A stretch of DNA of 64,000 bases from Candidatus Latescibacterota bacterium (GCA_965222605.1 OZ244960.1:4320001-4384000), one strand, 5' to 3'; shown: positions 16,006 through 50,012, counted from the first letter of the stretch. Made by a program: numbers and translations. The notes: a model not told the origin generated them from the letters alone.

Positions 16006-16725
16006 ATGCTTATGCGATTCAAGAACATTCTACTTACCGCAGTGCTCCTGCTTGTACCCCCGCTGTCTCCGACGATACCAGCTTTGGCTCAGGATAGCCA
16101 ATGGGGTCTGGGAACAAATCTCAGCTATTCTCTGCCGGTGCTGGACCTCAGAAGCTGGTTCACTCAGGGGCCCGAACTGGGCGTTATGTTGCTCTATAAC
16201 TACACCTCCAGAACCGAGTTGGAAGTGGAATATCACCACGTTCGTTTCAACGGTGGGAGTCTGGAGGAACGGACCTTCATGTGGGCGCCGACGGGGACCA
16301 CGGATCGAAGTCCATACGGCAGCCCGAGCGCGCAGTCCCGGATGCGAATGAACAGCTATCTGGTCAATGGGATTTTTTACCTGGACCAGAGGCAATCCGG
16401 CAGCGGATGGGCACCGTATTTTAGCTTCGGGAGCGGTTTTTACCACTACCGGACGCGTGAGACGGGGCTCATCTTCCCCGGCCAGACAGGGGATGCGCTG
16501 GACTCGACACTCGTGTTGGAGCCGGATGGGGACTCAAGAGCGGCCCTGGGGATCAGTCTCGGGCTTGGAGTTGGACTTTTCGTGTCCGAGCGAGCGACCA
16601 TCGATTTCCGCGGCCGGTATAACGTGATGCTGGGTCAACTGCGGCCGATGAAGGCGTGGGGGTTAGAGGAGGTATTTCCATTTCAGGTATTGGACTTCGG
16701 CATTCGGATCAAAATGTATCTTTAA
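16006..16725 (+). CDS. Small outer-membrane beta-barrel protein (OmpA-like transmembrane domain)
   Basis: Signal peptide ending PALA|Q; alternating beta-strand patterns (PYFSFGSGFY, IDFRGRYN, DFGIRIKMYL). Confidence 0.75.
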   Translation: MLMRFKNILLTAVLLLVPPLSPTIPALAQDSQWGLGTNLSYSLPVLDLRSWFTQGPELGVMLLYNYTSRTELEVEYHHVRFNGGSLEERTFMWAPTGTTDRSPYGSPSAQSRMRMNSYLVNGIFYLDQRQSGSGWAPYFSFGSGFYHYRTRETGLIFPGQTGDALDSTLVLEPDGDSRAALGISLGLGVGLFVSERATIDFRGRYNVMLGQLRPMKAWGLEEVFPFQVLDFGIRIKMYL

Positions 16726-16789
16726 GGGCTCGCCGTAAATCTGCCCCAGGTTGACCCGAACGGGCCAAAAGGAAAGGAGAAACCGGTAT

Positions 16790-19700
16790 ATGGGAAATCT
16801 GAAACTGCTTGTGGTCTGCGTGCTGGCGCTGGGCCTGCTGTGGGGCTACGCCGGGCATGCGGAAGCTGCGACGACCGGTAAAATCACGGGGAAGGTAACC
16901 GACGGGCAGGGCAACCCCCTGCCGGGGGCGAACGTAATTGTGGCCGGAATGCGACTGGGCGCGAGTGCGGACGTGGAAGGGCGCTACCTGATCCTGGCGG
17001 TGTCGCCGGGGAAGCACAGGTTGACTGCGTCGATTGTCGGATACGGGTCGGTGTCGCAGACGGACGTGAACGTGCAAGTCGATTATACGATGACGGTGGA
17101 TTTCATCCTCCAGGAGGAGACGATCCAGACTGGGGAGATCGTGGTGGTGGCGGAACGACCGCTGGTGGAGCGGGACAAGACGACGAGTAAGTACGTAGTG
17201 AGCTCCGAGGAGATCGAGCAGCTTTCTATCGTGCGGGAAGTAGATGAGTTCGTAAGCCTGCAGGCGGGGTCGGTGCCAGACGGGAGCCTCCAGATCCGGG
17301 GCAGTCGGGCCGAAGACGCGACCTTCTACGTGGACGGGGTGCCTATCGTGACCTACGACGGCCAGTCCAGGTTCAACCGGTTCCATGGGGTGAACACCAG
17401 CGCCGTGCAAGAGCTTACCGTGCTGACTGGGGGGTGGGAGGCGGAATACGGCAACGCCCAGGGCGGGATAATCAACATTGTGACGCGGGAGGGTGGTTTA
17501 CGGTATTCCGGACGGTTCGAGTACGTGTTCGAACCGGTGGGGAAGAAGCACTGGGGGAAGGATGTGTACGAGGCGCCGCAGTTCGAGGGCAACCTCCGGT
17601 GGGACGATTCGGACTGGGTGAACGAGACCTACGCAGACAACGACCACCCCGGGCCTGACTTCATCTTCGGCACCGCAGACGACAATGACCGCATCCACAC
17701 GCGGACGGACTACACCGGTGTGACCGGGCACTTCTTCGAGGGATTCTTCTCCGGGCCGCTGACCCGAAGCGCGACTTTTTTCGCCAGCTCGCGCACGGAC
17801 CGGTCGGCCAACGCGTCTCCGGGCGCTGCGAAGCGCATCCCGGCCAACACGCAAAACACAGGGAAGCTGAGCTTGGACCTGACGTTCAATATGAAGCTGA
17901 ATATCGGCGGATTCTACCACCGGACCTGGGGGGACAGCGACGGAAGGGTGCAGATCACCCGCCGTCAGTCCATAGGAGGGTCTAGCGCCGGGATCTCGCG
18001 AGGGATGCAGGACGCCGGGCGGAACCTCTTTCTGCCGTCGGGATCCACGGTGGGGAAATTCACCGACACGGACAACCTGCTCTACGCATTTGCGACGCAC
18101 ACGCTGAGCCCCCGGACGTTCTACGAGGTTCGGCTGTCCTGGTCCTCCGCCAGTCAGGACACGAGCGGACTGCCGGCGATCTCGGAGAACCCGATCAGGG
18201 ACAAGCAAGGGTTCTTCAACCTGCCTCGAAAGGTTCGGGCATTCGAGGTTTCGAGGCGCCACCGGGTCAACTTCAAGGCAGACCTGTCCAGCCAGGTCAC
18301 TTCGGGGCACCTGCTCAAGACAGGGATCGATCTCACCCTGTTCAACTCCTGGGGGTGGGGGTTCGTGCAGGAGAACCCCAGCATCCGGCGGATTAGCTAC
18401 TACGGGGACAACAGCCAGATCGAAGAGGCGATCAGCCCTATCCAACTCACTTTCTACGCGCAGGACAAGATGGAGTTCGAGGGGATGGTCGTGAACGCCG
18501 GGCTGCGGCTGGACGCCTTCTATCCCCGGTTTGATCGGTTCACGGTGCCGGCCTTCCCGTCGACTCCGATGTACAACTCCTACACCCTCCTGCAGAAAGC
18601 GCCCACGACCGCGATGGAGAACCACATAGCAGTCAGCCCCCGGGTGGGGGTGTCTCACCCGATCACGGCCAGTTCCATTATCCGGTTTTTCTACGGCAAG
18701 TTCTACCGGTGGCCGGAATTCCGGACGCAGTTTGGGCGGCAGTTCTTCGCGAACGCGCCGGACCAGGATCTGGACAATAACGGCCAAATCGACGAAGACG
18801 AGAGGTTCAACGGGCTGACCGAGACGGACCTGGGGACGTGGTTCGGGCACTACGGCCTGCCCGAGCAGACGAGCAGTTTTGAGGTGGGCATGGACTGGAA
18901 TGCGGTCTCCGACTACGTGCTGTCGATGACGGCGTTCTACAAGAGCACGGACGACCAGCACAGCTCCAGATCCGGCATGAACTGGAACGACCCCCGCACG
19001 GGCAGTCCGAACCGCACGGGCGTACCGGTGAACCGGTGGTGGGAGGATATGCGGGGGCTGGAGTTCAGCCTGCGAAAGCGGGTCAGTCCCCGGTTCTATT
19101 TCCGAGCGGCGTACAACGTACAGTGGGCGTCCGCGGGTCAGACGAGCCCGAAGGCCTACGGTTGGTACCCGGACTCCACCTGGGTGGCCGCGGGGAACTA
19201 CTGGTACAAGTACGAAGTTGTGAACGGAGAAGAGGTGCCGGTGCCGCTGACGGAGGCGGAGATCCGGGATATCGGACACAATGCGCAGGAGCGCATCCGG
19301 GGATTCCTCGAAGCGGAGGACGAACGCATCCTGATTCCGGTGAAGGACGAGCCGGGGTTCTGGGGGCTCTACAACCCCAACGGGGGGAGCCTCTCCGACG
19401 AAACCGGGCCGTTCTTCGGCTCGGACATCCGGGCCTTCGGGAGTCTGCAGGCCTTCTACCAGACCCCCAGCGACTGGGGCCCGAAGGTGGGGCGAGCCGG
19501 GCTTCTGGGGAACATCCAGTTCAACTTAATCTACCACATCCGAGGGGGCAACCCCTTCGTGTACAGCCCGCCGGAAGGCGGGTCGGAGATCCGGCACCGG
19601 CCGATCCGCACCTGGACGGATTTCAACGCACAGAAGACGTTCCGGGAGCTGGGCGGCAGGGGCCTGAACCTGACCCTGTTCGTGGAGACGTTCAATATCT

Positions 19701-19864
19701 TCGGACAGAAGGACCGGAACGCGGGCAACTTCGACTATGTGCAGTACGGGCTGCGCAAGCCTCGGCCGAACGACCCGAACTACAAGTTGTACGGAGACCC
19801 GAGAGATCGGAGCTTCTGGGGCCGGCCTCGAGATGTCCATCTGGGACTGCGGGTGAGGTTCTAA
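16790..19864 (+). CDS. TonB-dependent receptor with N-terminal carboxypeptidase-regulatory-like domain (TBDR-1)
   Basis: Signal peptide AEA|A; GKITGKV..PLPGANV; plug motifs IRG and LTGGWEAEYGNAQGGIINIVTR; YAQDKMEF, SPRVGVSHPI; C-terminal Phe (GLRVRF). Start ATG 16790 after AAGGAG. Confidence 0.93.
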   Translation: MGNLKLLVVCVLALGLLWGYAGHAEAATTGKITGKVTDGQGNPLPGANVIVAGMRLGASADVEGRYLILAVSPGKHRLTASIVGYGSVSQTDVNVQVDYTMTVDFILQEETIQTGEIVVVAERPLVERDKTTSKYVVSSEEIEQLSIVREVDEFVSLQAGSVPDGSLQIRGSRAEDATFYVDGVPIVTYDGQSRFNRFHGVNTSAVQELTVLTGGWEAEYGNAQGGIINIVTREGGLRYSGRFEYVFEPVGKKHWGKDVYEAPQFEGNLRWDDSDWVNETYADNDHPGPDFIFGTADDNDRIHTRTDYTGVTGHFFEGFFSGPLTRSATFFASSRTDRSANASPGAAKRIPANTQNTGKLSLDLTFNMKLNIGGFYHRTWGDSDGRVQITRRQSIGGSSAGISRGMQDAGRNLFLPSGSTVGKFTDTDNLLYAFATHTLSPRTFYEVRLSWSSASQDTSGLPAISENPIRDKQGFFNLPRKVRAFEVSRRHRVNFKADLSSQVTSGHLLKTGIDLTLFNSWGWGFVQENPSIRRISYYGDNSQIEEAISPIQLTFYAQDKMEFEGMVVNAGLRLDAFYPRFDRFTVPAFPSTPMYNSYTLLQKAPTTAMENHIAVSPRVGVSHPITASSIIRFFYGKFYRWPEFRTQFGRQFFANAPDQDLDNNGQIDEDERFNGLTETDLGTWFGHYGLPEQTSSFEVGMDWNAVSDYVLSMTAFYKSTDDQHSSRSGMNWNDPRTGSPNRTGVPVNRWWEDMRGLEFSLRKRVSPRFYFRAAYNVQWASAGQTSPKAYGWYPDSTWVAAGNYWYKYEVVNGEEVPVPLTEAEIRDIGHNAQERIRGFLEAEDERILIPVKDEPGFWGLYNPNGGSLSDETGPFFGSDIRAFGSLQAFYQTPSDWGPKVGRAGLLGNIQFNLIYHIRGGNPFVYSPPEGGSEIRHRPIRTWTDFNAQKTFRELGGRGLNLTLFVETFNIFGQKDRNAGNFDYVQYGLRKPRPNDPNYKLYGDPRDRSFWGRPRDVHLGLRVRF

Positions 19865-19882
19865 TAAAAGGAGGACGATACG

Positions 19883-22210
19883 ATGCGTTGTTTGAATAGA
19901 CGGCACATCCTGCTTGGGATCTGCGCGCTGGCTGCGGCCCTGTTTTTCGGGTTCGTTTCGGACCTGAACGCGCAGAATATCCGGCAGTTCGCACACCGGC
20001 AACTGACCCGGTCAAAGATTTGGCACACCTTCCGCAACGGGCTCTCCGGACGGGTGATCCGCCAGCCCGGCTCCCCCTGGCACGCTGGGATGAACTACCC
20101 GGGAGGGTTCATGGACCGCGATGCGTCCGATTTTAACAACTGGTGGGGGCAGTGGACCGTATCGGCGAGGAGGGGCCGGTTTAATCTGCCTTATTCCACC
20201 ACCCGAGGGGAGGGGATCTCCATCCTCATCCCGGACAAGGGAGTCTCTGCGGCCGGGCCCCGCTGGAATACCGATGATATCGTTGGAAAGGTCTATGACG
20301 TGGCCAGCGGTCCGGAGTTCCACCTGGGGTTCGAGACCTACGCCCACTACAAGGGGGGGTACAACTACGCGGAGGAGCGAAGGCCCGGCCCAATGGCCAA
20401 TTACTATCCGGGCGCGCCGGCGGTGGCGCGCGGCCCATTGGAGATTCACAACCACATCTACGGGCGCTACATTGGGGACGACGCCTTCCCCGAGGAGATG
20501 GTGATCTCTCAGTGGACGACGAAGTTCGGGATCACGGTGACGCGAAAGGCGTATGCGTGGAGCTACCCGGATTTCGACGACTTCATCATCCTGGAACTCA
20601 TCTTCGACAACAACGGGGATACGAACGGCGACGGCGTGCCGGACGCCGGGCTGCCCGAGCCGCTCAAGGACGTGTACTTCTCCTTCCAGAACATCGAGAC
20701 CATCTCCTCGGCCGGGATATTTAACACCTGTTGCTCATGGTGGTCGCATAGTGCCTTACACGAGGACGATTACTACCGGTTTACGGGCGCGGCAAACTAT
20801 GACGGTCCGGTTGATTACGCGGACCTGAAGATCAGCTACCACTGGGATGGGGACTCGCCCAACACCTTGTGGGACGATACGGGGGGCCCCTACGTCTCCA
20901 GCCGGCACTCGCCCGGGTTTGCGCACCGGCCGGACAACGAGCTTACGGACGCGATGTATTTGGGGTTTGCGCCGATCGATACCGAGCCGCCGTTTGTTAA
21001 CGACCCGGAGGTCTATGAGGCACCAAAGGTGGCGGACCAGCCGGTGGCGGCGAACTGGTTCCAGATCTTCAGCAACAGCAGCTACACCGAAGCCGATCCG
21101 CAAAAGGACAGCGACGAAGCGATCTTCCAGAAGCTCATTGAGGCGGGCATCGTGGACAACCCGACGGACATCGGGTCCTACGTGCATTCCCAGAGCTATG
21201 GACCCTACGACCTCCCGCCGAACGGGAAGGCGAAGCTCGTGATGGTCTTTGCGGGTGGCTATGGCGGGGAGTTCGAGGACGAGGACGCGGGGGTGGACTC
21301 CCGGGGATTGGGGTTCTACGAGTGGGCGCAACTCGGTCGGCAGGAGGAGCTTCCGAACGGGCTGCCGGTGATGGTGCGGCACGTGCGCCGTGCGCACCTG
21401 GCCTACAACAGCGGCTACGATCTGCCTGATTGTCCGCCGGATGTGGCCACCCAGCACGAGGACAACCCGAATGGGCAGTGGCGCCTCGTCTGGCCGGACG
21501 ATGCGGACCGGGCCGAGGACCCCGATTATTCCGACCCCAACGAGGCGCGCGATGTGGTGGCCTACCGGGTCTATCGGGCTACCTTCAAAATTGAGGGACC
21601 CTGGAAATTGTTGAAGGAGATTCCGGTGGGGGACCCCGCGCACTACGACGCCGCTGCCGGGACATACACCTTCGACGACGAGACCTCTGTGGCCGGGTTC
21701 AATTATAGCTACTCGGTGCGGACGGTGGATAGCGGGCATTCGACCTGGGTTAACAACGACGGGACGATGACACTTGAGGACCTGCCTCTGCAGCTCCAGA
21801 ACCGGGTGAAGAATGGGATGGAGTCCGGGCACTCGGCCCCGGAGCAGCGGATGAATCAGCTCGTGGCTCCCAAGGTGCCCGGCACGGTCGATAAGGACCG
21901 GCTGGAGGAGCCCGTGCGCGTGGTGCCCAACCCCTATCGGGACGACGACTTGCACAAGTACCCGGGCAGCGACCGCATCCGGTTCGTGAACATCCCCCGG
22001 AAGTGCCGGATCTCCATCTTCACCCCTGCGGGGGACCTGATAAGGGTCATCGACCACAACGCCGAGGTCGGTGAGACAGCGTGGGAGCGGCAGATCCCGA
22101 GATCGTTTATCCAGGAGACGGCCAGCGGGATCTACTACTACGTGGTGGAATCGCTGGTGCCCGGGTCGGAGGGAAAGCAGTTCATCGGTACATTCGTAAT
22201 TATCAGGTAG
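19883..22210 (+). CDS. Secreted protein with FN3-like domain and T9SS type-A-like C-terminal sorting domain (CTD-1)
   Basis: Sec signal LNA|Q with no lipobox; YRVYRA..FDD..YSYSV FN3-like segment; C-terminus VRVVPNPY..IRFVNIP..ISIFTPAGDLIRVIDH..W..ASGIYYYVV..FVIIR. Confidence 0.8.
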   Translation: MRCLNRRHILLGICALAAALFFGFVSDLNAQNIRQFAHRQLTRSKIWHTFRNGLSGRVIRQPGSPWHAGMNYPGGFMDRDASDFNNWWGQWTVSARRGRFNLPYSTTRGEGISILIPDKGVSAAGPRWNTDDIVGKVYDVASGPEFHLGFETYAHYKGGYNYAEERRPGPMANYYPGAPAVARGPLEIHNHIYGRYIGDDAFPEEMVISQWTTKFGITVTRKAYAWSYPDFDDFIILELIFDNNGDTNGDGVPDAGLPEPLKDVYFSFQNIETISSAGIFNTCCSWWSHSALHEDDYYRFTGAANYDGPVDYADLKISYHWDGDSPNTLWDDTGGPYVSSRHSPGFAHRPDNELTDAMYLGFAPIDTEPPFVNDPEVYEAPKVADQPVAANWFQIFSNSSYTEADPQKDSDEAIFQKLIEAGIVDNPTDIGSYVHSQSYGPYDLPPNGKAKLVMVFAGGYGGEFEDEDAGVDSRGLGFYEWAQLGRQEELPNGLPVMVRHVRRAHLAYNSGYDLPDCPPDVATQHEDNPNGQWRLVWPDDADRAEDPDYSDPNEARDVVAYRVYRATFKIEGPWKLLKEIPVGDPAHYDAAAGTYTFDDETSVAGFNYSYSVRTVDSGHSTWVNNDGTMTLEDLPLQLQNRVKNGMESGHSAPEQRMNQLVAPKVPGTVDKDRLEEPVRVVPNPYRDDDLHKYPGSDRIRFVNIPRKCRISIFTPAGDLIRVIDHNAEVGETAWERQIPRSFIQETASGIYYYVVESLVPGSEGKQFIGTFVIIR

Positions 22211-22223
22211 GAGGACCCTTGAG

Positions 22224-23216
22224 ATGGCATACAGGATCTGGTTGATCGTCGTTCCGACGGTCTGGTTCTTCGCCCTCTCCCCTGTTCTGGGGGCCGAGAT
22301 CGGGACTGAAAGCGATTTTGACATCGATGAGAACACCCGGAGCCTGGCGGGGCAGCGGGTGGGAAGGGCGGGTTTTGGATTTTTGAAGATCGGTCAGGGC
22401 GCTCGCCCGGTCGGGATGGGTGAGGCGTTCGTGGCGGTGGCCGACGACATCAACGCGGCCTTCTGGAACCCGGCTGGCCTGACCGAGGTCGAGCGCCTCG
22501 ACTTCCTGTTTACCTACAGCGAGTGGATCGCCGGCAGTATGGTGATGTCCGGGGCAACGGCAATGCAGACGCGGTACGGTGTGGTGGGACTCAGCTTCAT
22601 CAGTCACCAGCCCCCCGCTACTGAGGAGACGACGATCTTAGAGCCGCAGGGCACTGGGGAGATGATGAACATCGGCGACATAGCGGTGGGATTCCTCTAC
22701 GCCAAGCAGTTGACGAACAAGCTCTCCTTCGGGGTGCATTTCCGATGGATACAGGAAAGTCTGCACCTCGAGAACCTCCAGACGGTGGACATGTCGGTGG
22801 GCACCCACTTCGACACCGGATTCAAATCGGTGCGGATTGCGATGAGCTTCCAGAACTTCGGGAAGGACCTCACGCCCGTGGACCGTGCGTTCCCGATGCC
22901 GGCGGTATTCAACTTCGCAGGGGCGATGGAGGCCTATGGAAATAGGGGAGACCCGGTCTGGCTGACGATCGCGTCGAATTTCAATTTCCCCATCGACTAC
23001 GAGGAACGGCTGGTCGTGGGCGGCGAGCTATGGTTGATGAACACGCTGGCGCTGCGCGGCGGGTACAAGTTCAACACCGACGTGGAGGGATATACGCTTG
23101 GCGTAGGGATGAAGTGGGGCCGCGACAATGGCCGCCACATCGCGGTCGATTTCGCCTATTCCCAGTTCGACCTTTTCAATGCCCCGCTGAGGTTCTCGGT
23201 CAATGGAAGTTTCTAA
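22224..23216 (+). CDS. PorV/PorQ (UPF0164)-family outer-membrane beta-barrel (PorV-like 1)
   Basis: FLKIGQGARPVGMGEAFVAVADD..AAFWNPAGL signature, LALRGGY, VDFAYS, terminal Phe. Confidence 0.88.
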   Translation: MAYRIWLIVVPTVWFFALSPVLGAEIGTESDFDIDENTRSLAGQRVGRAGFGFLKIGQGARPVGMGEAFVAVADDINAAFWNPAGLTEVERLDFLFTYSEWIAGSMVMSGATAMQTRYGVVGLSFISHQPPATEETTILEPQGTGEMMNIGDIAVGFLYAKQLTNKLSFGVHFRWIQESLHLENLQTVDMSVGTHFDTGFKSVRIAMSFQNFGKDLTPVDRAFPMPAVFNFAGAMEAYGNRGDPVWLTIASNFNFPIDYEERLVVGGELWLMNTLALRGGYKFNTDVEGYTLGVGMKWGRDNGRHIAVDFAYSQFDLFNAPLRFSVNGSF

Positions 23217-23228
23217 CGGCATGCAGGA

Positions 23229-25226: not shown

Positions 25227-25335
25227 TACGAGGAGCATGGAGAGGAGATGGGGTGAAGAATCCGGAGATTGGGGATAGGGGAGATATGAACAGCTTTTTT
25301 TGGAAAATTCAACCCGTACAGGAGTGCGTAGCCCT

Positions 25336-25641
25336 ATGGAAGCCGTGAAATTCGACTCGTCAACCATGCCGCGTCAGCGGCTGCTTTACTTGCATGCCCG
25401 CACGCCCAGCGTCTTTTCGGAGATCCTGGGCTTCACGCCGATCGAGCCGATCGAGGGATACAGAGCGGAGATCGCCGCCGAAGCGCAGGAGTGGCCCTAC
25501 CAGACCGTGCACGATGCTCTGGTGGATGGCTGGCAGATTGTGCAGTTTCCCCACCTGCAAGCGCCCTTTAGCGATCAGGACCTGGACGTGGTCGGCTACG
25601 AGTTCATTTTACAAAGACTGGAGATCATCGATGACCAATAA
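25336..25641 (+). CDS. Small hypothetical protein coupled to a PhyH gene
   Basis: 101 aa after AGGAG; overlaps the downstream start; RQRLLYL...DGWQIVQFP...GYEFIL. Confidence 0.6.
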   Translation: MEAVKFDSSTMPRQRLLYLHARTPSVFSEILGFTPIEPIEGYRAEIAAEAQEWPYQTVHDALVDGWQIVQFPHLQAPFSDQDLDVVGYEFILQRLEIIDDQ

Positions 25642-26410
25642 AGAACACCTACTTACCGACGTGGAGGTAGCCCGGTTTATCGTCAACGGCTATCACATTG
25701 TGGAGCCCGACCTGCCGGAAGGCCTGAACGAAGGGATCGCGCGGCAGTTGGATGAACTGGATTCCAATCCCGGCGCCGCAATCACCGATGTGGTGCCCGA
25801 CCTGTGGCAGGTGCTGGAGCACCCGGCCTTGAGAGGGGTACTGGTCAGCCTGCTCGGCCCTGACTACGAGGTGCTGTCCCCGCGGCACTGGCACTGCAAA
25901 CCGCCCGGTTCGGACCACATGCAGTGGCACCAGGATGGCACTAACAACCGGGCAACCCGCATCGACCACTTCCTGGGGCTCTATTACCCCCGCGACGTCA
26001 CCACAGAGATGGGGCCAACCATTATCGTGCCCGGTACGCAGTTCCGGAATGCGCCCACCGACCGCATGGCCACCTACACCAATATTCGCGGGCAGGTCCC
26101 GCTGGTGATCAAGGCCGGCACGGTCGCCCTTACCCACTACGATCTGTGGCACGGCACGGCGGCCAACCGCTCCGGCGTCAAGCGCCATATGGTCAAGTTT
26201 CACTTCCAGCGCACCCAGGAGAACAGCGAACCGACCTGGAACCACGACCCCGAGGAGCTCAACAGGCCGCACGACTGGAACCTGCGCGACAGGGCCGAAG
26301 ATGTGAACAATATTCTCACGTTCGGCAACCCCCTGGGCGTGTCCCAGAGCGACAACTACAAGGAACGCGCCATTCGACGCAAGTGCTGGAACTCCCTGAT
26401 GGGAGGTTAG
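25631..26410 (+). CDS. Phytanoyl-CoA dioxygenase (PhyH)-family Fe(II)/2-oxoglutarate oxygenase
   Basis: F..NGY start, WHQD (HxD), GPT...PGT, WHG..N..R; start ATG 25631. Confidence 0.88.
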   Translation: MTNKEHLLTDVEVARFIVNGYHIVEPDLPEGLNEGIARQLDELDSNPGAAITDVVPDLWQVLEHPALRGVLVSLLGPDYEVLSPRHWHCKPPGSDHMQWHQDGTNNRATRIDHFLGLYYPRDVTTEMGPTIIVPGTQFRNAPTDRMATYTNIRGQVPLVIKAGTVALTHYDLWHGTAANRSGVKRHMVKFHFQRTQENSEPTWNHDPEELNRPHDWNLRDRAEDVNNILTFGNPLGVSQSDNYKERAIRRKCWNSLMGG

Positions 26411-26475: not shown

Positions 26476-26515
26476 AAAAAGGGCTTACAAGAAATTCTTG
26501 TAAGCCCTTTATTTT
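26476..26515. terminator. Bidirectional intrinsic terminator
   Basis: AAAAA-GGGCTTACAAGA-AAT-TCTTGTAAGCCC-TTTATTTT, between the PhyH stop and the tRNA fragment. Confidence 0.8.
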
Positions 26516-26518
26516 AAT

Positions 26519-26567: not shown

Positions 26568-26711
26568 CAAGAACACCTAAAAACTCACGATACGCGCAAT
26601 GTTTGCTATATCAATAAGTTACAAGATCACTTAAAAAGTCCTTCAGCTCTGGTGTCGTCTTGTGCATCCTCTATCAATTCTCCAGAAGTTCGACGTCATG
26701 ATTTTGTTTTT

Positions 26712-29078: not shown

Positions 29079-29263
29079 TGGGTGTTTCCAGATTAGGATA
29101 AAGTTCGCTGGTAATATGAACAAACACCCTAAAGGAGTAAACAAGACGCTCCAGCGGGTGGTCGTATGTTTTGCTCTTGCCGGCTATATACGCTTTTTGC
29201 TTTTGGAGAATAGAAAATATCACCTAATGTTTTGCACAATTTGTGTTTTTTTATTATTACTCA

Positions 29264-31928: not shown

Positions 31929-33962
31929 TCAACCTTTCGACCAGGTGAAATCCTCTTCTTCCAGGGCTGCGAGGCCAGGCACCCCCCGGTGTACTTCCAA
32001 TGCCGTCCGGAAGATGCGCGATTTGCCCTTTGCCCTGAGGAGAATCGTGCCTCTGCTGTCTGGAATGGGGTTGCCGGGAGTCCGCCCTGATGTGATTTCG
32101 AAGGGGCCGTCGGAAACGGCAAGTAGGCGCAGCCAAACCCGATCGGAAATTCGCCAATCTACGCAGAGAGTTCCGTCTGTGGAAGTGGTCTGGCGATCCC
32201 TGAGCCAGGCAAATACGCCGTAGTGCGACAGAGGCGGGAAATCGAGGTCATCGATAACGTTTGATGGACGAACAATCATGCCGCCTCTAGCATGAAATAC
32301 CCACGCGTACCGGTGGATGGTATCGGACGTGCAGCGATCTTCGATCCATATGTAGGGCGGTCCGAACCGGATGCGGCGTTCCAATTCCACACCCTCGTAC
32401 GCGTCTTCGAGTACGGCAGATGCCAGTCGAGGATCTATTTCACGGAATTCCAGCCGGGCCTTTTCCACTGGTTGCTGATTCTGCTCATCTACCATCAGGG
32501 TGTTATGCGACAATGTGCTTCTGTAATAAGCATGGATGTCGCTGGCAGCATAGCCCGCGGTGCCGAGATCGGACGCGATTTGTAATCCGAGGGCCCTGAG
32601 ATCGATAGACAGCTTATCGGGATGGTCGTGACCAGCTCCGTGCGCACCTCCTTTGAACAAAAGATAGAAAGGGCCTTCGGCTGTATCTTCTCGAAAGATG
32701 CCGAAGCCCATGGCCGAAAGATGGGTGGATTTTTGCGACAGCGGATCTGCATCGATCTCGTCAGGGCCGAAGGCGAGTGCGGTCAGGCTGTTGCGGGGAA
32801 TACCTCGCTTGTATATGGCGCTGAGCGTTTCTGTGAACAGATCGCCGCCGAGTTGTCCCGCAGCGTATTCGTAAACGTGTCTGTAGATGGCCAGAGAACG
32901 TGAACCAGGCGAGCCCAGGTCGCCCACGCATGGCAGGTCGAGATTCTGATCGCACATGTGTATAGGTGCTTCGAACAGCTTTTCAAAACGGGTTTGGATA
33001 TCCTGGGTCACCTGACCTTGCTGGCGAAGCATTTCAAACACAGTGACCATGGGACAGACCGAGTAGAAATGGTAGAACATGGTCCCTTCAAACCAAAATC
33101 CATCCACCTTGCCTTCCGGATCGGTCCTCAATCCATCGGTAAGTAGCGCAGACAGGCCTCCCCGGTCGCCGCCCAGACCCATCGAAAGCCAGTCTTCGTG
33201 GCCGGTCGCCTCACCGGAGAGAGCCAGGCACGCACCCACGTAACAGGTCATATTGTGCGCGCCTGTACGTTCGAAGAATTGGATCTGCGAAGGCATCCCG
33301 GCTTCAAAGATCCCTTCGCGGATGGTTTGATGGTCGGTGCTGGAATACGCCTCGCTGTCGCGCGTCCAGGAGTAAGCGTTAGCTATTAGAGCCAGCACTT
33401 GGGCATCGTAAAGCGGCTGGAAATAGAGGGCGTCACCGTGGTTCCCTTCGCGGAGATCTTCCCGGGTGAAAAACTGGGCTGTTAGGCGCATCCCTTCGGC
33501 TATCCAACTGGCATAGCGTTCATCCTCGGTGAGGCCGTAGAGCAGTCCCAGACTGCGCATAAGGCGATAGGTACGTTCGTGGGTGAGCAGTGTCCAGGCC
33601 CGGTGTTGGACTTCACTTTCGTGGAGTGATTGGTCCGCCGGATCCAGAAATTGATGTGGGCTCTGGGGATCGTAGATCAGATGCTCGGCGGTGGTGTGCG
33701 AGTAGAAGTCGTGACGCCACCCTATCCGTTCTTCGGGTAGCTGCGGTGGTTTTTTGAGTACAATCTCGGCTTCTTCTTGCATCTGTGAGAGGGAATCGGC
33801 GGCCCACTGCAGTGCGTCTGTTTTTCTGCGGATTTCTTCCAGGCGTTCTGCGCCAAAGAAAATTGTCGGCCAGACATCCTCGATGACCATACCCGAGTCA
33901 TAGGGCGATAACGTGTAGGGCCATTGAAAGGAGCCGACACTTGTCGTGGGTGTTTCGGTCAT
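31929..33962 (-). CDS. Heparinase II/III-family exo-polysaccharide lyase (PL15/PL17-like), no signal peptide
   Basis: HN, DGFWFEG..YHFY, HGAGHDHPDKL, DLGT.GY, STLSHNTLMVD motifs. Confidence 0.85.
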   Translation of the reverse strand: MTETPTTSVGSFQWPYTLSPYDSGMVIEDVWPTIFFGAERLEEIRRKTDALQWAADSLSQMQEEAEIVLKKPPQLPEERIGWRHDFYSHTTAEHLIYDPQSPHQFLDPADQSLHESEVQHRAWTLLTHERTYRLMRSLGLLYGLTEDERYASWIAEGMRLTAQFFTREDLREGNHGDALYFQPLYDAQVLALIANAYSWTRDSEAYSSTDHQTIREGIFEAGMPSQIQFFERTGAHNMTCYVGACLALSGEATGHEDWLSMGLGGDRGGLSALLTDGLRTDPEGKVDGFWFEGTMFYHFYSVCPMVTVFEMLRQQGQVTQDIQTRFEKLFEAPIHMCDQNLDLPCVGDLGSPGSRSLAIYRHVYEYAAGQLGGDLFTETLSAIYKRGIPRNSLTALAFGPDEIDADPLSQKSTHLSAMGFGIFREDTAEGPFYLLFKGGAHGAGHDHPDKLSIDLRALGLQIASDLGTAGYAASDIHAYYRSTLSHNTLMVDEQNQQPVEKARLEFREIDPRLASAVLEDAYEGVELERRIRFGPPYIWIEDRCTSDTIHRYAWVFHARGGMIVRPSNVIDDLDFPPLSHYGVFAWLRDRQTTSTDGTLCVDWRISDRVWLRLLAVSDGPFEITSGRTPGNPIPDSRGTILLRAKGKSRIFRTALEVHRGVPGLAALEEEDFTWSKG

Positions 33963-34000
33963 TTCATCTCCTCAGATTGCCAGCTATTTTCGACTGCGGC

Positions 34001-34067: not shown

Positions 34068-34169
34068 CTTCATAAGGAATATGGACTTATCTCTATTCAG
34101 TGATCCGGAGACTCACAGTTAGTTTCGTATTGACGGTATCGGGCTTTGTGATATTGTCCCAGGTCTGGT

Positions 34170-35153
34170 TCAAAATGCAACTCCCACTGAAAACCGGCTC
34201 ACATTGGCGAAAAACTCGTTCCTGGTAAAGGAATAATCGACCATGACCTGCGTCTCGCCGATACGTTGCTTCACGCCGGCTCCCGCGGTCAGGCTTTCCA
34301 TATCGTGATTGAACTTATAGCCAACCCGGAGCGCCAGCATTTCCTGAAACCAGTATTCTCCGCCCAGGTAGATCCGCTCGCTGAAATCGCGCGGGTGGAT
34401 GGCGTCGAATGCCAGCGACAGAGAATGTGAGGGAGAGTCAAGGAGTTCCATTGCGGCGCCGATATGGAACGTCAGCGGAAGCTGAAAACCGATCTTCTGG
34501 TATTCGATTTCTGGCGAGAAGTTCCGAATGTAGATCCCCAGTCTCAGGCTCCTCAACCCGGTGTAGTAGATGGTCCCAAACGTGAAGTTTATCGCATCCG
34601 CTTTGTTATCAACGGCCACGTTGGATGTCCCCACGGGTGAGATTATGCTTGAGCCCAGATGCTCGGACACATACTTGATCTGGCCCCCGATGAAGAACTT
34701 GTTTGTCAACTGCTTGGAATAAGCAAGTCCCGCAAAATAGGCCCCCACGTCGATGCTTCCCGTCTCGGTAAATCCCTTCTCGTTCCCGGCGACCTGCGTC
34801 CCGATCAATTCACCGTAATTGACAGCGCCGAAGTTCACTGCAAAAATCCCGTGAGATGCCTTGTAGGCAGTTCCCAGTGCCGTATAGTTGATGTCCGCGA
34901 TCCACTGAACTCGGTGTGCGACCATCTGGATCTTAGAGTCCATGCGGGCCATGCCGGCCGGATTGTAGAACATAGCATCGGCGCCGTCACCTACCATCGA
35001 ATACGCTCCGCCCATTGCCTCCGCCCGCGCACTGAGACCAATCTTCAGAAATTGAAACCCCGTCTGGGCCAGTTTCTTCTTCTGGGCCTGGGCAGGTGTA
35101 ACCAGGCACACAAACATCAGCAGTATCAGAGTTAAACCCATACATTTTTTCAT
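34170..35153 (-). CDS. PorV/PorQ-family outer-membrane beta-barrel (PorV-like 2)
   Basis: Signal AQA|Q; FLKIGLSARAEAMGGA..AMFYNPAGM; LALRVGY; VDYSF; terminal Phe. Start ATG 35153. Confidence 0.88.
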   Translation of the reverse strand: MKKCMGLTLILLMFVCLVTPAQAQKKKLAQTGFQFLKIGLSARAEAMGGAYSMVGDGADAMFYNPAGMARMDSKIQMVAHRVQWIADINYTALGTAYKASHGIFAVNFGAVNYGELIGTQVAGNEKGFTETGSIDVGAYFAGLAYSKQLTNKFFIGGQIKYVSEHLGSSIISPVGTSNVAVDNKADAINFTFGTIYYTGLRSLRLGIYIRNFSPEIEYQKIGFQLPLTFHIGAAMELLDSPSHSLSLAFDAIHPRDFSERIYLGGEYWFQEMLALRVGYKFNHDMESLTAGAGVKQRIGETQVMVDYSFTRNEFFANVSRFSVGVAF

Positions 35154-35181
35154 TGTATTTCCCCTTCTCCGAGACCGTCGA

Positions 35182-37311
35182 TTACCTGACGATAACGAAT
35201 TTGACAAAGCTGGATTCTCCGCTTGGCATCTCTACATGTGCGATGTAGACGCCGCTGACAACGATCTGCCTGGTTTCGGTCGTCAAATCGCTCCAGGGTT
35301 CATCCCCCGAACCGTCCGTGTGCTCCAGGACTTTGACCAGGTCTCCGCTTAGAGTGAAGATACGGATTGTACATTCTGGCGGCAGCCCTGCGAACAGGAT
35401 CTTGTCATTTTCTCCTGGGAACTGCAGTCCTGCCTCTGCTGCCGAAATATTGTAGGGATTGGGCACGACTCTGATATCGGCCAATGTGTTCCCTGGCGCC
35501 CGTGTCAGAGAGACCGGTTCCGTCGTTCGATTATACAGGATGCCGCTTTCGACACTCTCGCCGGGTCGAAGCCCATCCTCGATGCCCGGCTGATTCTGCG
35601 ACCCATCGTCAAACGCTGTGACAGCGTAATAATAAGAAACGCCCCGCTGGGCGGTCACGTCGTCAAACGAGTGGACGCTCGTTCCCTGAGACTCGTGGAT
35701 CACCGTGAACGTCGTGTCGGGACTCCCAACCGCTCGATACACCCTGTATCCGGCAAAGTCGGACGCGGATTCGGATTCGGACCCCCACAAAATCTGGACC
35801 CTATCCGGGCGCCCCCATACCTCGATGGATGGCGGCGGCGGTGCCTTGGGGACGTTGTAATTGTGTCGTACGGCCCACTCCGCGTTATAGATGTTCTGGA
35901 ACAGAGAGTCCTTACCCGTGGCGACCCAGTTGTCTTTGGCGCGATCGACCGCCGTCGGAATGAGATCCGGAAACGCCTGGCCCACGGGCGGGATCTTGTC
36001 TTCGCCTTCCCAGGTCAGCGTTCCTTCTTTCCATCTTCGTCCGATATCCCACCTCATCTCGCGAGAGAGGGAGCCGCCGACAACGGCGAACACCATCCGG
36101 AAATCATCTCCGGCCTTCATCTCGTCGAACGGTCCCAGAGACATATAGATGGCCCCACGTCCCTTTGTCGCATCTTGCACCCATTTGATCTTTCGCTCAT
36201 CCATTCGCGACTGGTAGCGCACACGGCCCTCGGAGGGGACGTTAAGGCCGAAGTAGTAAGCCTTCTGGCCCTCCACCAGTTCGGGAAAACCGTAGTGGAA
36301 GGAGCTGTATTCCAGTTCGTTCACCGTTGGATTGTTCTGGTCATGCTGTCGGGCGGTGGTGTATTTCTGCAGTCCGGATGCAAACACGTGCGGCTGCTCT
36401 CGGTCGTCGGTAAGGTCGTCAACAGATTTGTCAACGTGTAGAATGGCGATGCCAACGTAGGATGGTTCCTTGATAAACCCCGTCGTCTGATCGGGATTTC
36501 CGAAGGTGTCGTATTGCTGGCCTCTGTTCCAGGCAGGATAATTGTAGGCGACCCGCAGCGAATCGCCTTCCTGTTCGCCGTACGTTGTGCTCCATCCGAA
36601 ATTCCCCATATCCTGATTGACCCATGCAGCGAGGGCAAAGTATACGCCATTCAGGGTCTGGGCGGGCAGATCCACCTGTATCCCGGACGGAGTCGTGTAC
36701 TGGCCTGTGGTATTCTTGAAAGTCCAGTCATAAAGCACATAGTCGTCGTGGTTGACCTGCGAAAAAACGAACACCTTCTGATGGATCGTGATCCCGACCG
36801 AGGTTCGAATCCAGGATTCGATTAACTGATCAGCGCCTTTTCCCCCACTCGAATCGATATAGTCCGGATTGACTTCATCCCCCTCCAATGGAAAGAAGGG
36901 CTGGATGGAGGCGCCCTGAACGGATATAGATGGAGGCTGGAACCTCACATACCTTCTAATCGTAAACCCATCTACATCGACGGGCATATTGTCAAAGGCC
37001 TCTTCACCGTTATAGACGCTCGTACCGCTGGTCTTGAAGCCCCAGGTGGCACCCCTCTCATCGGTCCAGTCCCTAACCGCAACCCTCCACGCGATATTCT
37101 CCATAAATCGGTTTCCATTGTAGTAGAACTGCCGGTATGATCTGAGCGGCCTGGACATATCGCCGGAATCGAAAATGGCGCTCCACATTTTTCCGATTCT
37201 CACCCACTTAAACACATCCGCCCGGGCAGTGTTGGCGAGGACCAGGAAGACAATCAATCCAAAAACGATCGCCACCAGTGCCTTCGGGATCCTTATCCCT
37301 GAATATTTCAT
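35182..37311 (-). CDS. Secreted protein with FN3-like domain and T9SS type-A-like C-terminal sorting domain (CTD-2)
   Basis: Signal ARA|D with no lipobox; FAGYRVYRA..FDD..YYYAVTAFD; C-terminus IRVVPNPY..ILFAGLP..IRIFTLSGDLVKVLEH..W..VSGVYIAHV..KFVIVR. Confidence 0.8.
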   Translation of the reverse strand: MKYSGIRIPKALVAIVFGLIVFLVLANTARADVFKWVRIGKMWSAIFDSGDMSRPLRSYRQFYYNGNRFMENIAWRVAVRDWTDERGATWGFKTSGTSVYNGEEAFDNMPVDVDGFTIRRYVRFQPPSISVQGASIQPFFPLEGDEVNPDYIDSSGGKGADQLIESWIRTSVGITIHQKVFVFSQVNHDDYVLYDWTFKNTTGQYTTPSGIQVDLPAQTLNGVYFALAAWVNQDMGNFGWSTTYGEQEGDSLRVAYNYPAWNRGQQYDTFGNPDQTTGFIKEPSYVGIAILHVDKSVDDLTDDREQPHVFASGLQKYTTARQHDQNNPTVNELEYSSFHYGFPELVEGQKAYYFGLNVPSEGRVRYQSRMDERKIKWVQDATKGRGAIYMSLGPFDEMKAGDDFRMVFAVVGGSLSREMRWDIGRRWKEGTLTWEGEDKIPPVGQAFPDLIPTAVDRAKDNWVATGKDSLFQNIYNAEWAVRHNYNVPKAPPPPSIEVWGRPDRVQILWGSESESASDFAGYRVYRAVGSPDTTFTVIHESQGTSVHSFDDVTAQRGVSYYYAVTAFDDGSQNQPGIEDGLRPGESVESGILYNRTTEPVSLTRAPGNTLADIRVVPNPYNISAAEAGLQFPGENDKILFAGLPPECTIRIFTLSGDLVKVLEHTDGSGDEPWSDLTTETRQIVVSGVYIAHVEMPSGESSFVKFVIVR

Positions 37312-37353
37312 GGCTTCTCCTTCCTCTTAACTGTTAAAAATAGAACAGTTTTT

Positions 37354-40317
37354 TTAAAAACTCACCTTGATCCCAAAGAAGATATCCCTCGGAGGCAAGA
37401 AGGTCGCGCTTTCTGCGTTCGGCATCATGATATGGCTGTCCTCTCCCCCGATGGTCCCCATTCTGTCGTTCCCCACCGGATTTTCGTAGGCCGGAGATTC
37501 GGGCAGGTTCAAGGTTGTCATGTAGTCCTCTCTGTCGGAGGTGCTGACAAAACCCGCGTTCCCATTGAAGTATTTCTGGTTGAACAGATTCGTAATATCC
37601 ACAAACAGGCCGACATCTACTCCTCTCGCCACGAAGTCCTTGGATATTCGCGCGTTCCAGTTCGAGTAGTTTTCCCACTGGAGGTTGTTCTGGATACCTG
37701 GAATCTGGTTTGGATTGTAGGTGATCCAGCCCCCGGCTCTCCAGTTGTAGAAGAGGCTGAATCGAAATCTCTCCAGCGGCTTGAATCCGGCCACTTCTGG
37801 TCCGGAATCCGGCGGCACCAGGAGCATCACATTCGCCCGGAATGAGGGTCGAGCTTTAGGCCTGCTCTGGTATGGGTCCTGTAGGCCAAAAAGCCTGTGT
37901 TGAACCGGGTCCTCGTAGTAGTTCCGGCGCCCGATAAACCCACTGGTCAGGACCATATAGTTGTAGTTCGCCCATCCTGTGAACCACTGTCCCACGCTTT
38001 TATCCACTCTGATTTCGAAACCCCTGATGTCCGCGTAGTTGTTGTTTTCAACGGTGGTATAGACCACGCTTCCGTCCACATTGTTGTAGGTGACATTGCC
38101 AACCTGATCGGCGACATCCTTATAGTATCCGGCCAGATGAATGAGCACCATATTGAACAGATTGTGGTCGTACCCCAGTTCATAAGCGATGGTTCGTTCC
38201 CACTCCGTGCTCGGGTTGCCCAGATAGGCTATCTTGCCCGGAAAACTCCTCCGGACGCCGTAGTAATCCTCTGTTCTGGGTATGCTGTAGAAGTGACCGT
38301 AGTTGAAATAGATCTTCGAATTCACTGTGATGGGGTGCGATACGCCCAGCCGTGGGCTGAATTTGAGGTGGCTTTTGGCCGGCTCCGTGGGAACGACTTC
38401 CTCAAAGTCATCCTGGTATTTCGCCGTCAGGAATTTGGAATAGTGATCCACCGAATACCAGTCTGTGGCGGGCGTGGCATAATCCATACGAACCCCAATA
38501 TTCGCGATCATGCCCTCCACCTCCAGCTTGTCCTGGGCGTACGCGCTGAACCGTTTGGGGATCTTTTCGTACGTGTTTATCCAGGTGTAGGGTGTGATGC
38601 CCGGATTGTAGATGGCATTCCAGATCGCCAGGTCGTTATAGACGTAGTGAAATCCTGCTTTGGCCTGATTGTAACGGCCGATCTGGCTGGTGATATCCGC
38701 CCGGATATTCGTGGTCGTAATAATCGAGCTGTCACGAGCCGTCGAAAGATGCATGCCCATACGCATTCCGTCCTGGGCTTCAATTGAATCAAACCACAAA
38801 CCCAGCGGCGCTTCATCTACCATCATTGGACCGAACTGGTATTGCAGCGTGCGGTCTCTGATGGGCAGAGCAGTCGTACGGTACTCGGATTCCATCCGAT
38901 CTACCCTGAGGTTATAGAAAGTAGATCTGCCCAGGGTGTGTGTGAGTACGAAACCCAACGAGGTCCTCTTGAGACTGAACAGAGAAAACCTGGATGGTGT
39001 ATAGATCGTCGCGCCGCTATAGCTGGTCGCGTCCGCCAGCGTCTCGATGGCGTTGTCGTAATAGAGCCCTGTGTTACCGTCTGCGACCGACTCGATATTG
39101 CTGTATCCTCCGACAGCAGTGAGTTTCATTGACGGGATGATATTCAAAATTAGCTTCAGCGTCGAGTTGTCTTCTCGATGGCTATCCCTTGACATCGGAT
39201 AGGGATAGATATTGATATCCGTACGGTGTGATGCAAAGAAGCTCAGCTTTCTACTGGCGGGAATCAGCGGTCCGCCGATACTCGCGTCTCCAATATGGTC
39301 CGCTTTGTCCCCATCCTTCAAAGAGCGTGGTCCTCCTTCGGCGAATTTTCTGAACATAAACAGCTGCTGGGCTTCTTGGGGCGACATGTCATTTGAGGGA
39401 TCGTCATCTTCTGTATATCGCTTGGCTATCTCATTCCAGCCTACAAATTGCCTTTCCTGCAGTTGGGTTTCCTCGTCCCACTTGCCCGTACCTTCAAAGG
39501 CGACCTCAGGATCGAGAAAAGCCCGTAGATAGTAGTTATCCGCGCTATACCATGAGGGTCCGAAATGCTTTTTAGCAGGTGGGCTGTACCGATAATCAAC
39601 CGACCCGTGGTAACGGTCCTGGGCAGATTTTGTGATCACGTTGATCACACCCGATCTCACATTCCCGTATTCCGCATTGAACCCACCGGTGATAATCGAG
39701 ATCTCCTGTACGGTACTCAGGTTGAGGGAGGTCAGCGTGGGCCTGTTCACCCGTTCATCCACCATCAGGATGCCATCCACCACCATCGCGACCTGATTCT
39801 GCCCACCCCCTCGGACCACCATATTCTCGATTCCCGGCTGCGTGTTCAGGAACTGCTCGACCTTCACAACTGCAGGGATCTCCCTCACCTGCTCACCCTG
39901 GACAATTACCTCGCTGGCCGAAACGTCCATCTGGACCACTTCCCTTTCAGCCGTTACCGTGATCTCCCGCCCCACTATACTACTAACTTGCAATGAGAAA
40001 TTGACAGGAACCGTACGTCGTCCCTGCACCAGCACATCCGTTTTGCTCACAGTGGTGTATCCGACCATGGATACCCGGACCACATGCTTGCCCGGTGAAA
40101 CGTTCAGGATGTTGTAAACGCCTTCCACATCGGTGGAAGCTCCTAATGATGTACCTTCGATGATCACGTTCGCTCCCGGTAGGGGCTCTCCGGTCTCCTC
40201 GTCTGTGACGACACCGCGGACCTTACCTGTCTCTTGGGCTAACAGGTCTCCCTGCACGAGGAAGAGCGAAAGCGCAATGCTAAGTAGCGGTAGAAACCAT
40301 CTTCTTGTCCGTTCCAT
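37354..40317 (-). CDS. TonB-dependent receptor with N-terminal carboxypeptidase-regulatory-like domain (TBDR-2)
   Basis: GKVRGVV..GEPLPGANV; VRGG; ITGGFNAEYGNVRSGVINVITK; YAQDKLE; SPRLGVSHPI; terminal Phe. Confidence 0.93.
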   Translation of the reverse strand: MERTRRWFLPLLSIALSLFLVQGDLLAQETGKVRGVVTDEETGEPLPGANVIIEGTSLGASTDVEGVYNILNVSPGKHVVRVSMVGYTTVSKTDVLVQGRRTVPVNFSLQVSSIVGREITVTAEREVVQMDVSASEVIVQGEQVREIPAVVKVEQFLNTQPGIENMVVRGGGQNQVAMVVDGILMVDERVNRPTLTSLNLSTVQEISIITGGFNAEYGNVRSGVINVITKSAQDRYHGSVDYRYSPPAKKHFGPSWYSADNYYLRAFLDPEVAFEGTGKWDEETQLQERQFVGWNEIAKRYTEDDDPSNDMSPQEAQQLFMFRKFAEGGPRSLKDGDKADHIGDASIGGPLIPASRKLSFFASHRTDINIYPYPMSRDSHREDNSTLKLILNIIPSMKLTAVGGYSNIESVADGNTGLYYDNAIETLADATSYSGATIYTPSRFSLFSLKRTSLGFVLTHTLGRSTFYNLRVDRMESEYRTTALPIRDRTLQYQFGPMMVDEAPLGLWFDSIEAQDGMRMGMHLSTARDSSIITTTNIRADITSQIGRYNQAKAGFHYVYNDLAIWNAIYNPGITPYTWINTYEKIPKRFSAYAQDKLEVEGMIANIGVRMDYATPATDWYSVDHYSKFLTAKYQDDFEEVVPTEPAKSHLKFSPRLGVSHPITVNSKIYFNYGHFYSIPRTEDYYGVRRSFPGKIAYLGNPSTEWERTIAYELGYDHNLFNMVLIHLAGYYKDVADQVGNVTYNNVDGSVVYTTVENNNYADIRGFEIRVDKSVGQWFTGWANYNYMVLTSGFIGRRNYYEDPVQHRLFGLQDPYQSRPKARPSFRANVMLLVPPDSGPEVAGFKPLERFRFSLFYNWRAGGWITYNPNQIPGIQNNLQWENYSNWNARISKDFVARGVDVGLFVDITNLFNQKYFNGNAGFVSTSDREDYMTTLNLPESPAYENPVGNDRMGTIGGEDSHIMMPNAESATFLPPRDIFFGIKVSF

Positions 40318-50007: not shown

Positions 50008-50012
50008 AACCT

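Follow-up and report, generated by a model that had tools for sequence, protein, structure and literature searches.

A TonB receptor, a sorting-domain protein and a PorV-family barrel recur as a triad in a Latescibacterota genome: a candidate SusD-independent uptake module

SusC/SusD pairs are the textbook account of polymer capture in Bacteroidota, and a locus that encodes a TonB-dependent receptor without a SusD partner raises the question of what could present the cargo to that receptor. We followed this question in a stretch of 64,000 nucleotides from a Candidatus Latescibacterota bacterium (GCA_965222605.1 OZ244960.1:4320001-4384000; G000:C1:4320001-4384000 in our numbering), hereafter the window, which belongs to a closed genome of 6.34 Mb that is 98.7% complete. 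Two convergent cassettes in the window each encode a TonB-dependent receptor (T), a secreted middle protein (X), an outer-membrane barrel of the PorV/PorQ family (V) and a DUF6785/DUF6784 membrane protein (D), and one of them opens with a small barrel (o). Our reading, about which we are evenly divided, is that each cassette is an outer-membrane capture-and-import unit in which X would be docked on V beside T and would take a SusD-like role.

The proteins of the window were used to search a six-frame set of open reading frames (ORFs) from the whole genome, and this census returned 28 X, 35 V-like, 37 T-like, 56 D and 22 o genes. Each of the 28 X genes has a T gene before it and a V gene after it, all three on one strand (T-X-V). 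An o gene stands directly upstream of T in 22 of these 28 triads, and the spacing within the o-T-X-V gene sets is tight (gaps of 12–42 bp). An earlier note on this DNA had described the module as twice repeated; both copies are present, but they are two of 28. Curated models run on the whole genome gave 57 matches to DUF6785 and 40 to NF033709, the latter with 34 places over the cut-off.

Two side observations concern the triads as a set. In one triad (~575–584 kb), X and V are split by an inserted IS4/5-type transposase gene (L089:7852-8649), and only there is the distance from X to V large (948 bp). Proteins of 450–1150 amino acids (aa) with TPR and/or GWxTD domains make up a family that is represented near 14 of the 28 triads by 20 members, which lie within 10 kb, on both sides and in both orientations (examples in the same genome are L088:5177-7657, L089:4231-6759 and L090:6297-7781); the family may be a further, looser component of the module.

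In the window, ORF listing and family scans place cassette 1 at 16006–25226 on the + strand and cassette 2 at 40317–29814 on the − strand, with the following parts.

16006..16725, +: o, small outer-membrane beta-barrel, 239 aa, opens cassette 1 (PF13505 OMP_b-brl 19.6 bits, below cut-off)
16751..19864, +: T1, TonB-dependent receptor, 1037 aa (PF13620 60.3 bits, PF07715 Plug 34.3 bits)
19883..22210, +: X1, secreted protein, 775 aa, without a Pfam or NCBIfam family; from its AlphaFold2 model, signal peptide 1–31, beta-supersandwich ~34–513, helix 487–509, FN3 ~524–616 and C-terminal domain (CTD) ~675–775 (DNA 21905–22207)
22224..23216, +: V1, PorV/PorQ-family outer-membrane barrel, 330 aa (NF033709 158 bits)
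23229..25226, +: D1, polytopic membrane protein with DUF6785 and DUF6784, 665 aa (Pfam 235.5 and 58.4 bits)
37354..40317, −: T2, TonB-dependent receptor, 987 aa, opens cassette 2 (PF13715 67.5 bits, Plug 27.8 bits)
35182..37311, −: X2, secreted protein, 709 aa, X1 paralog of a divergent subfamily (PorZ C-terminus E 0.0015; TIGR04183 16 bits)
34170..35207, −: V2, PorV/PorQ-family barrel, 345 aa (NF033709 193.2 bits)
31929..33962, −: heparinase II/III-like (polysaccharide lyase-like) gene between V2 and D2 (PF07940 79.1 bits; weak oligoalginate lyase and HepC matches)
29814..31835, −: D2, membrane protein with DUF6785 and DUF6784, 673 aa (291.4 and 70.6 bits)

The gaps o-T, T-X, X-V and V-D of cassette 1 are 25, 18, 13 and 12 bp, respectively. 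Cassette 2 has no small barrel o; its T-X gap is 42 bp, and X2 and V2 overlap by 26 bp when the longest ORFs are taken. The two convergent cassettes of the earlier note are therefore both real, but their order is the same only up to V, since the heparinase II/III-like gene parts V2 from D2. The strong divergence of the paralogs that it had described (26–34% identity) was confirmed: by BLAST, T1 and T2 share 29% identity, V1 and V2 30%, D1 and D2 34%, and X1 and X2 26% over the C-terminal 295 aa alone. When profiles of the X1 and X2 subfamilies were compared, homology reached from the C-terminal end back to about residue 150 (hhalign probability 100%, E 1.7e-62, 498 columns).

Loci from other genomes were retrieved through X with its seven closest paralogs, and the counts that follow are conditional on the presence of X. 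Among 60 such loci, V comes after X in 59 and T before X in 59, the two exceptions being contig ends. X was found in 54 of the 121 sampled genomes of the phylum. It is present in all 45 sampled genomes from the two families of the window's order (28/28 and 17/17) and in 1 of 45 from the largest other family. Triads also occur in four metagenome-assembled genomes (MAGs) that their submitters labelled KSB1, Cytophagia, Deferribacteres and Neomarinimicrobiota, one of which has the order T-V-X. In these four, the middle gene encodes 1000–1400 aa, and an unrelated, unannotated N-terminal part is joined to the same FN3 domain and CTD. This swapping of passengers argues for FN3 and CTD as a module that serves docking, with the N-terminal part as the end that varies and does the work. 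The KSB1-labelled MAG also contains a locus, L119 (G001:C427:1-18000), with five to six X-type genes in tandem and no T or V between them, and another of its loci (L120) reads o-T-X-V-X-X.

The identity of the flanking genes was examined with family models, and the earlier calls of a TonB-dependent receptor, a PorV-family barrel and a DUF6785 protein all held (PF07715, NF033709 and DUF6785). The Plug domain PF07715 is present in T1 (34.3 bits) and T2 (27.8 bits; cut-off 23.9) and is preceded in both by a CarboxypepD_reg extension (PF13620/PF13715, 59–67 bits). T1 has no Pfam barrel match, and its plug region alone matched PDB sequences; in T2, models of TonB receptor subfamilies match part of the barrel. 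The ESM Atlas neighbors of o are named outer-membrane protein (OMP) beta-barrel or OmpA-like. No SusD-family gene was found in either cassette, and PF07980 has a single match genome-wide, at 3841329, outside the window. The genome has one conventional SusC/D-like pair beside 28 T-X-V triads. The sole SusD-family match (G000:C1:3841329-3845574, 33 bits) contains one TAG and adjoins a 970-aa TonB receptor.

X is the part for which annotation is missing. No Pfam family was found for it in the family scan, its public relatives are annotated only as 'hypothetical protein' and carry no Pfam domains, and its ESM Atlas neighbors are 'hypothetical' or 'FN3 domain' clusters, with Gemmatimonadota, Fidelibacterota, Ignavibacteriota and Bacteroidota as the commonest phyla. 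Across the 28 paralogs, X carries a Sec signal without a usable lipobox, as had been read from the two copies in the window; a lipobox pattern occurs in 2 of the 28 and is misplaced both times. Many of the signal peptides predicted for the 28 X proteins end so that an alanine is followed by glutamine, which would become the mature N-terminus. A mature N-terminus of this kind is reminiscent of the pyroglutamate at the N-termini of proteins secreted by Bacteroidota.

An AlphaFold2 model of X1 built with 43 homologues (pLDDT 86.2, pTM 0.88) agrees, together with the family scans, with the FN3-like domain and the large N-terminal region of no known family that had been predicted. Residues 34–513 of this model match the non-catalytic N-terminal beta-supersandwich of glycoside hydrolase (GH) family GH15, GH94, GH116 and GH65 enzymes (Z 17–19). 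The alignments span 235–280 residues at an rmsd of 2.8–3.9, with Z 19.2 to the N-domains of bacterial glucoamylase (1lf6) and of GH94/GH116 enzymes, and are confined to the N-domains of these enzymes; the comparison covered folds that Foldseek ranked high and barely probed the CTD and FN3. An (alpha/alpha)6 catalytic barrel is missing from the X1 model, where residue 513 is followed by one long helix, FN3 and the CTD. As modeled, the N-domain of X would thus be a supersandwich of the kind associated with carbohydrate enzymes, minus the catalytic barrel.

Within X, conservation is highest in the CTD (mean pairwise identity 0.41 vs 0.29 for the N-domain), which in the X1 model is a C-terminal sandwich whose seven strands lie within residues 679–774. 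A profile built from the CTDs of the 28 X proteins matched one built from the canonical type-A CTDs of this genome, 14 in number (hhalign probability 97.5%, E 5.6e-12, 68 columns), so we regard the X CTD as a divergent type-A-like CTD. Among families it comes closest to the PorZ and PorU C-termini, and its top Foldseek match is PorZ (5m11); the profile had no match among PDB sequences at E ≤ 10. It is distinguished by an insertion after the PNPF motif and by a tail of the form ...ESLVPGSxGK...FVIIR. When a hidden Markov model (HMM) of the X-type CTD was run on the genome, it matched each of the 28 X proteins and, beyond them, a single ORF with a weak score (E 4e-4). Hence, in this genome the triads alone use this class of CTD, with one for each adjacent V.

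The V barrels belong to the PorV/PorQ family, as both exceed the NF033709 cut-off of 90 bits (V1 158, V2 193.2), and lie below the cut-offs of the PorV equivalog NF033710 (51.8 and 66.1 bits vs 250) and of the PorQ equivalog NF033711 (61 and 81.1 bits vs 220). The best candidate for a stand-alone PorV is at 1504704, away from the triads (NF033710 161 bits, PF19572 64 bits). As the earlier note had proposed, the genome was searched for sprA and porU. SprA was found (TIGR04189 492.5 and 133.7 bits, in one frame of 2086 aa, 630 with its neighbors; cut-off 200), but the PorU-like protein scored 237 bits against a cut-off of 420. The proposal that each CTD protein has a private barrel gained support from the CTD class restricted to X, from the adjacent V gene that each X has of its own, and from the co-divergence of T, X and V.

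This co-divergence was measured with a Mantel test on patristic distances over the 28 triads, which gave r 0.93 for T-X, 0.89 for X-V and 0.88 for T-V, with none of 2000 permutations as high. D and o co-diverge weakly with the triads (r 0.23–0.33). When X was divided, the partial correlation of the N-domain with T given V was 0.58 and that of the CTD with V given T was 0.39, and the cross pairs gave 0.30 (CTD with T given V) and 0.35 (N-domain with V given T). These values lean as a model with two contacts would predict, which is weak support.

From these elements, we propose the following course of events. X would probably cross the outer membrane via SprA by means of its type IX secretion-type CTD and would probably stay uncleaved on its private barrel V beside T, by analogy with PorZ on PorQ. 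X would also contact T, so that its N-domain is offered to the receptor, and X would fill the role of a SusD lipoprotein or of a surface glycan-binding protein. The variable supersandwich domain would bind the cargo, most likely a glycan, to judge by the fold itself and by the heparinase-like lyase inside cassette 2. Transport would be directed inward, and the products would pass the inner membrane through D proteins of the OPT fold. Of the two contacts in this scheme, that of the CTD with V is predicted by likeness to PorZ-PorQ, and that of X with T is inferred.

The arrangement shares features with several known systems. As at SusC/SusD (RagA/RagB) loci, the gene for a receptor with a CarboxypepD_reg extension is followed at once by that of a secreted surface partner, many divergent copies exist per genome, and degradative enzymes and an inner-membrane transporter are nearby. 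Unlike SusD, the partner X has no lipobox and neither the SusD fold nor the family, T does not reach the SusC/RagA model TIGR04056, and the locus has an obligatory third gene for a PorV-family barrel, frequently a small barrel before the receptor, and an inner-membrane protein of the OPT fold. X and V also resemble the PorZ-PorQ and PorU-PorV pairs, in that the best family matches of the CTD are the PorZ and PorU C-termini and its presumed partner is a PorV/PorQ-family barrel. In Porphyromonas gingivalis, PorZ is held on PorQ and the CTDs of PorU and PorZ are uncleaved (PMC10947112). Those are single pairs within the secretion machine, whereas here 28 private pairs are each tied to a TonB receptor, V is under the PorV and PorQ equivalog cut-offs, and the docking is a prediction.

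Type-B CTD cargo is anchored by PorP/SprF-like partners, and the X gene likewise adjoins the gene of its own outer-membrane partner. This adjacency of cargo and anchoring barrel genes is cited in PMC10947112 for SprB-SprF and PG1035-PorP. In contrast to PorP/SprF, V is of the PorV/PorQ family (V2 scored 30 bits with TIGR03519, cut-off 90.55) and the X CTD is related to type A. T, in turn, is like Oar of Myxococcus xanthus in its CarboxypepD_reg extension, Plug and, presumably, large barrel; the PopC cargo of Oar, unlike X, has no CTD, and no PorV-like gene is described in the available part of PMC6434023.

The D proteins were examined as candidates for the inner-membrane step. An AlphaFold2 model of D1 (pLDDT 84.9) gave a full-length Foldseek match to barley Yellow Stripe 1 (7wsr_A, E 7e-8, probability 1.00), with TM 0.61/0.66 over ~680 columns; the next hit had E 3e-3 and TM ~0.1. 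D1 thus superposes over its whole length on an OPT/Yellow Stripe-like transporter (barley YS1, 7wsr/7wst), but in contrast to that family D has no match at the sequence level and is expanded to 56 copies. Pfam OPT had no D match at E ≤ 0.01, where only DUF6785 and DUF6784 were found, and the D profile had no match among PDB sequences at E ≤ 1. Judged from the model, it is plausible that D is a secondary transporter. D genes are concentrated near the triads, 22 of the 56 lying within 10 kb vs 4.5 expected, a number not reached in any of 1000 simulations.

Overall, the genome has the character of a degrader of sulfated glycans, with ~150–159 sulfatase genes and 155–183 genes for PhyH-type dioxygenase-like proteins in 6.3 Mb, and the window also holds GH4, sulfatase and lyase-like genes. 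Examples of these two large families in the window are at 6799–8352 and 25394–26410. Contigs from RNA libraries (four runs from three studies, with sources labelled sponge metagenome where named) cover ~15820–25240, in parts to ~26470, and bridge the o-T, T-X, X-V and V-D junctions of cassette 1. The intervals 14968–15451 and 26584–28500 were uncovered in the four runs, which is no evidence of silence or of transcript ends.

Several of our results weigh against this picture of a glycan importer. With the SusC/RagA model TIGR04056, T1 and T2 scored 54.9 and 61.1 bits vs a cut-off of 368, matching profile positions 2 to ~217 only, and the architecture of T (CarboxypepD_reg extension and Plug) is that of the Oar subclass, of which one member exports a protein (PMC6434023). 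The type-A-like call of the earlier note stands in the profile-profile comparison but fares poorly with single HMMs: X1 had no match to TIGR04183 and X2 reached 16 bits (cut-off 23), and of the 28 X paralogs, seven matched the PorZ C-terminus (best E 1.1e-7), five TIGR04183 (E < 0.01) and five CHU_C. GldL and GldM had no match in the genome, although control genomes were equally silent and their absence is therefore not shown, and GldK had matches at the level of the FGE domain only (≤102 bits vs 350). Joint duplication of linked genes would give much of the same signal as the co-divergence of T, X and V, which is for this reason weak support. The supersandwich fold, seen in a model, is no proof of glycan binding, and X may still be catalytic. 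The RNA-library contigs show no strand, level or single transcript and may include contaminating DNA, so transcription is not proven.

Other points concern D and the neighborhood. A D gene lies within 10 kb of 18 of the 28 triads and of none of the other 10, 34 of the 56 D genes are farther away, and co-divergence of D with the triad parts is weak (r 0.23–0.30). This loose linkage and weak co-divergence suggest that the D proteins form a shared pool rather than dedicated partners; the DUF6785-like protein that had been named as the carrier of the module thus has the fold of an OPT/Yellow-Stripe transporter but is not a fixed partner of the triads. The cargoes known for OPT relatives are peptides and metal chelates; sugars are not known among them. 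Sulfatase genes are not enriched within 5–15 kb of the triads (9 of 159 within 10 kb vs 13.4 expected), nor are PhyH genes (14 of 183 vs 15.1 expected). The carbohydrate-related neighbors of the earlier note are present in the window (lyase-like, GH4 and sulfatase genes), but a general enrichment of sulfatases near triads is absent. Of 166 neighboring ORFs, 122 were scanned with Pfam; 18 of them have sugar- or sulfate-related domains and eight are PhyH, numbers that carry no claim of enrichment as the survey had no control set.

These points leave room for three other explanations. X could be an enzyme or adhesin of a new family, displayed at the surface or released, with V as its anchor or shuttle and T importing the products without any X-T complex. 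The supersandwich is a fold common to carbohydrate-active enzymes and is also found in galactose-mutarotase-like catalytic domains, X has near-invariant acidic residues (D232, D233, D296, D322, D332 and D374), the variants of 1000–1400 aa in the four MAGs have N-domains with room for catalytic modules, and the tandem X array of L119 does without T or V. We nevertheless think this unlikely, because the matched regions of GH15, GH94 and GH116 are non-catalytic and the catalytic barrel is missing from the model, because X sits constantly between T and V with gaps of 13–42 bp, and because the N-domain tracks T over V (partial r 0.58 vs 0.35). A related thought is that the cargo differs, with peptides, glycopeptides, metal chelates or other host-derived compounds being imported and X serving as a general capture protein. 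The OPT/Yellow-Stripe fold of D would fit such cargo, as would the PhyH-type genes that recur by the triads (8 of 122 scanned neighbors, including one after D1), the lack of sulfatase enrichment and the sugar or sulfate domains in just 18 of the 122. It is distinctly improbable, given that the fold of the X N-domain has so far been seen in carbohydrate-active proteins, that cassette 2 contains a heparinase II/III-like lyase and the window GH4, sulfatase and lyase-like genes, and that a genome with ~150 sulfatases is of the sulfated-glycan degrader type.

The direction of transport could also be reversed, in that an Oar-type T would carry X outward and V would receive its CTD at the surface, making the cassette a display system and not an importer. 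This would agree with the Oar-subclass architecture of T and its score below the SusC cut-off, with the lack of detected GldL, GldM and GldK equivalents in a closed genome of 98.7% completeness, and with the requirement of Oar for PopC secretion in Myxococcus (PMC6434023). The genome, however, encodes SprA (630 bits) along with a PorU-like protein, and it has 14 proteins with canonical CTDs, whose homology to the X CTD points to the SprA route. The OPT-fold inner-membrane protein and the lyase co-located with triads fit import, and we know of no precedent for one exporter per cargo repeated 28-fold; outward transport by T thus seems to us a long shot. We retain the reading of an inward-directed unit in which X would be held on V beside T.

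The remaining features of the window include three that belong to or flank the cassettes.

25394..26410, +: PhyH-family dioxygenase-like gene, 3′ of D1 (PF05721 51.6 bits)
26478..26510, no strand: terminator-like hairpin where the two units converge; 15-bp stem, with a T-rich tail on each strand (consensus scan, pattern match only)
644..2770, +: D3, third DUF6785 and DUF6784 gene of the window, away from the triads (316.4 and 72 bits)

The PhyH-like gene at 25394–26410 probably closes the cassette 1 unit. The triad of cassette 1 (16751–23216) has a G+C content of 0.617, the highest of the 28 triads (median 0.55, genome 0.51); its flanks have 0.43–0.50, and a DDE transposase gene is nearby at 12686–14050. 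A tRNA-Val gene (40638–40714, −) lies directly 5′ of T2. Between the cassettes, in a stretch of low G+C (0.43–0.47), is an ADOP/MacB-like duplicated permease gene (26712–29144, −); it was considered as a partner of D and rejected, as the genome has 45 copies, most of them far from any D or X. Unrelated to the triads, a PIN-domain gene and then a gene for a 1301-aa HrpA-like helicase (DEAD, HA2, OB, DUF3418) occupy 49519–53918 (+).

A literature search that had subscription journals outside its coverage returned no description of the T-X-V architecture and no paper on DUF6785; in the available parts of PMC4454575 and PMC7081726, TonB comes up solely in connection with B12/iron uptake, or not at all. 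It is about an even call that the module combines a TonB-receptor uptake locus with anchoring of the PorQ/PorZ type, in an architecture that appears undescribed. With rather less confidence, we suggest that it represents a second, SusD-independent class of outer-membrane 'utilisome' across phyla of the Fibrobacterota-Chlorobiota-Bacteroidota (FCB) group. In this class, the CTD would serve as a permanent, non-covalent anchor in a private PorV-family barrel and would set a swappable capture domain (the 500-aa supersandwich or unrelated passengers of 800–1100 aa) on the receptor, and the trio would duplicate and diversify as a unit.

If true, this would give a concrete answer to how SusD-less uncultured relatives within the FCB group feed their many TonB receptors, and it would show type IX secretion parts in a role new to them, in which a PorV paralog and a sorting domain together anchor one particular protein. 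The T-X-V triad would then be a genomic marker by which loci for substrate uptake could be found, both in Latescibacterota and among MAGs labelled Marinimicrobia, KSB1, Gemmatimonadota and Ignavibacteriota, groups that include abundant sponge and ocean lineages, and the ~28 unannotated capture proteins per genome would be candidates for new glycan-binding specificities.

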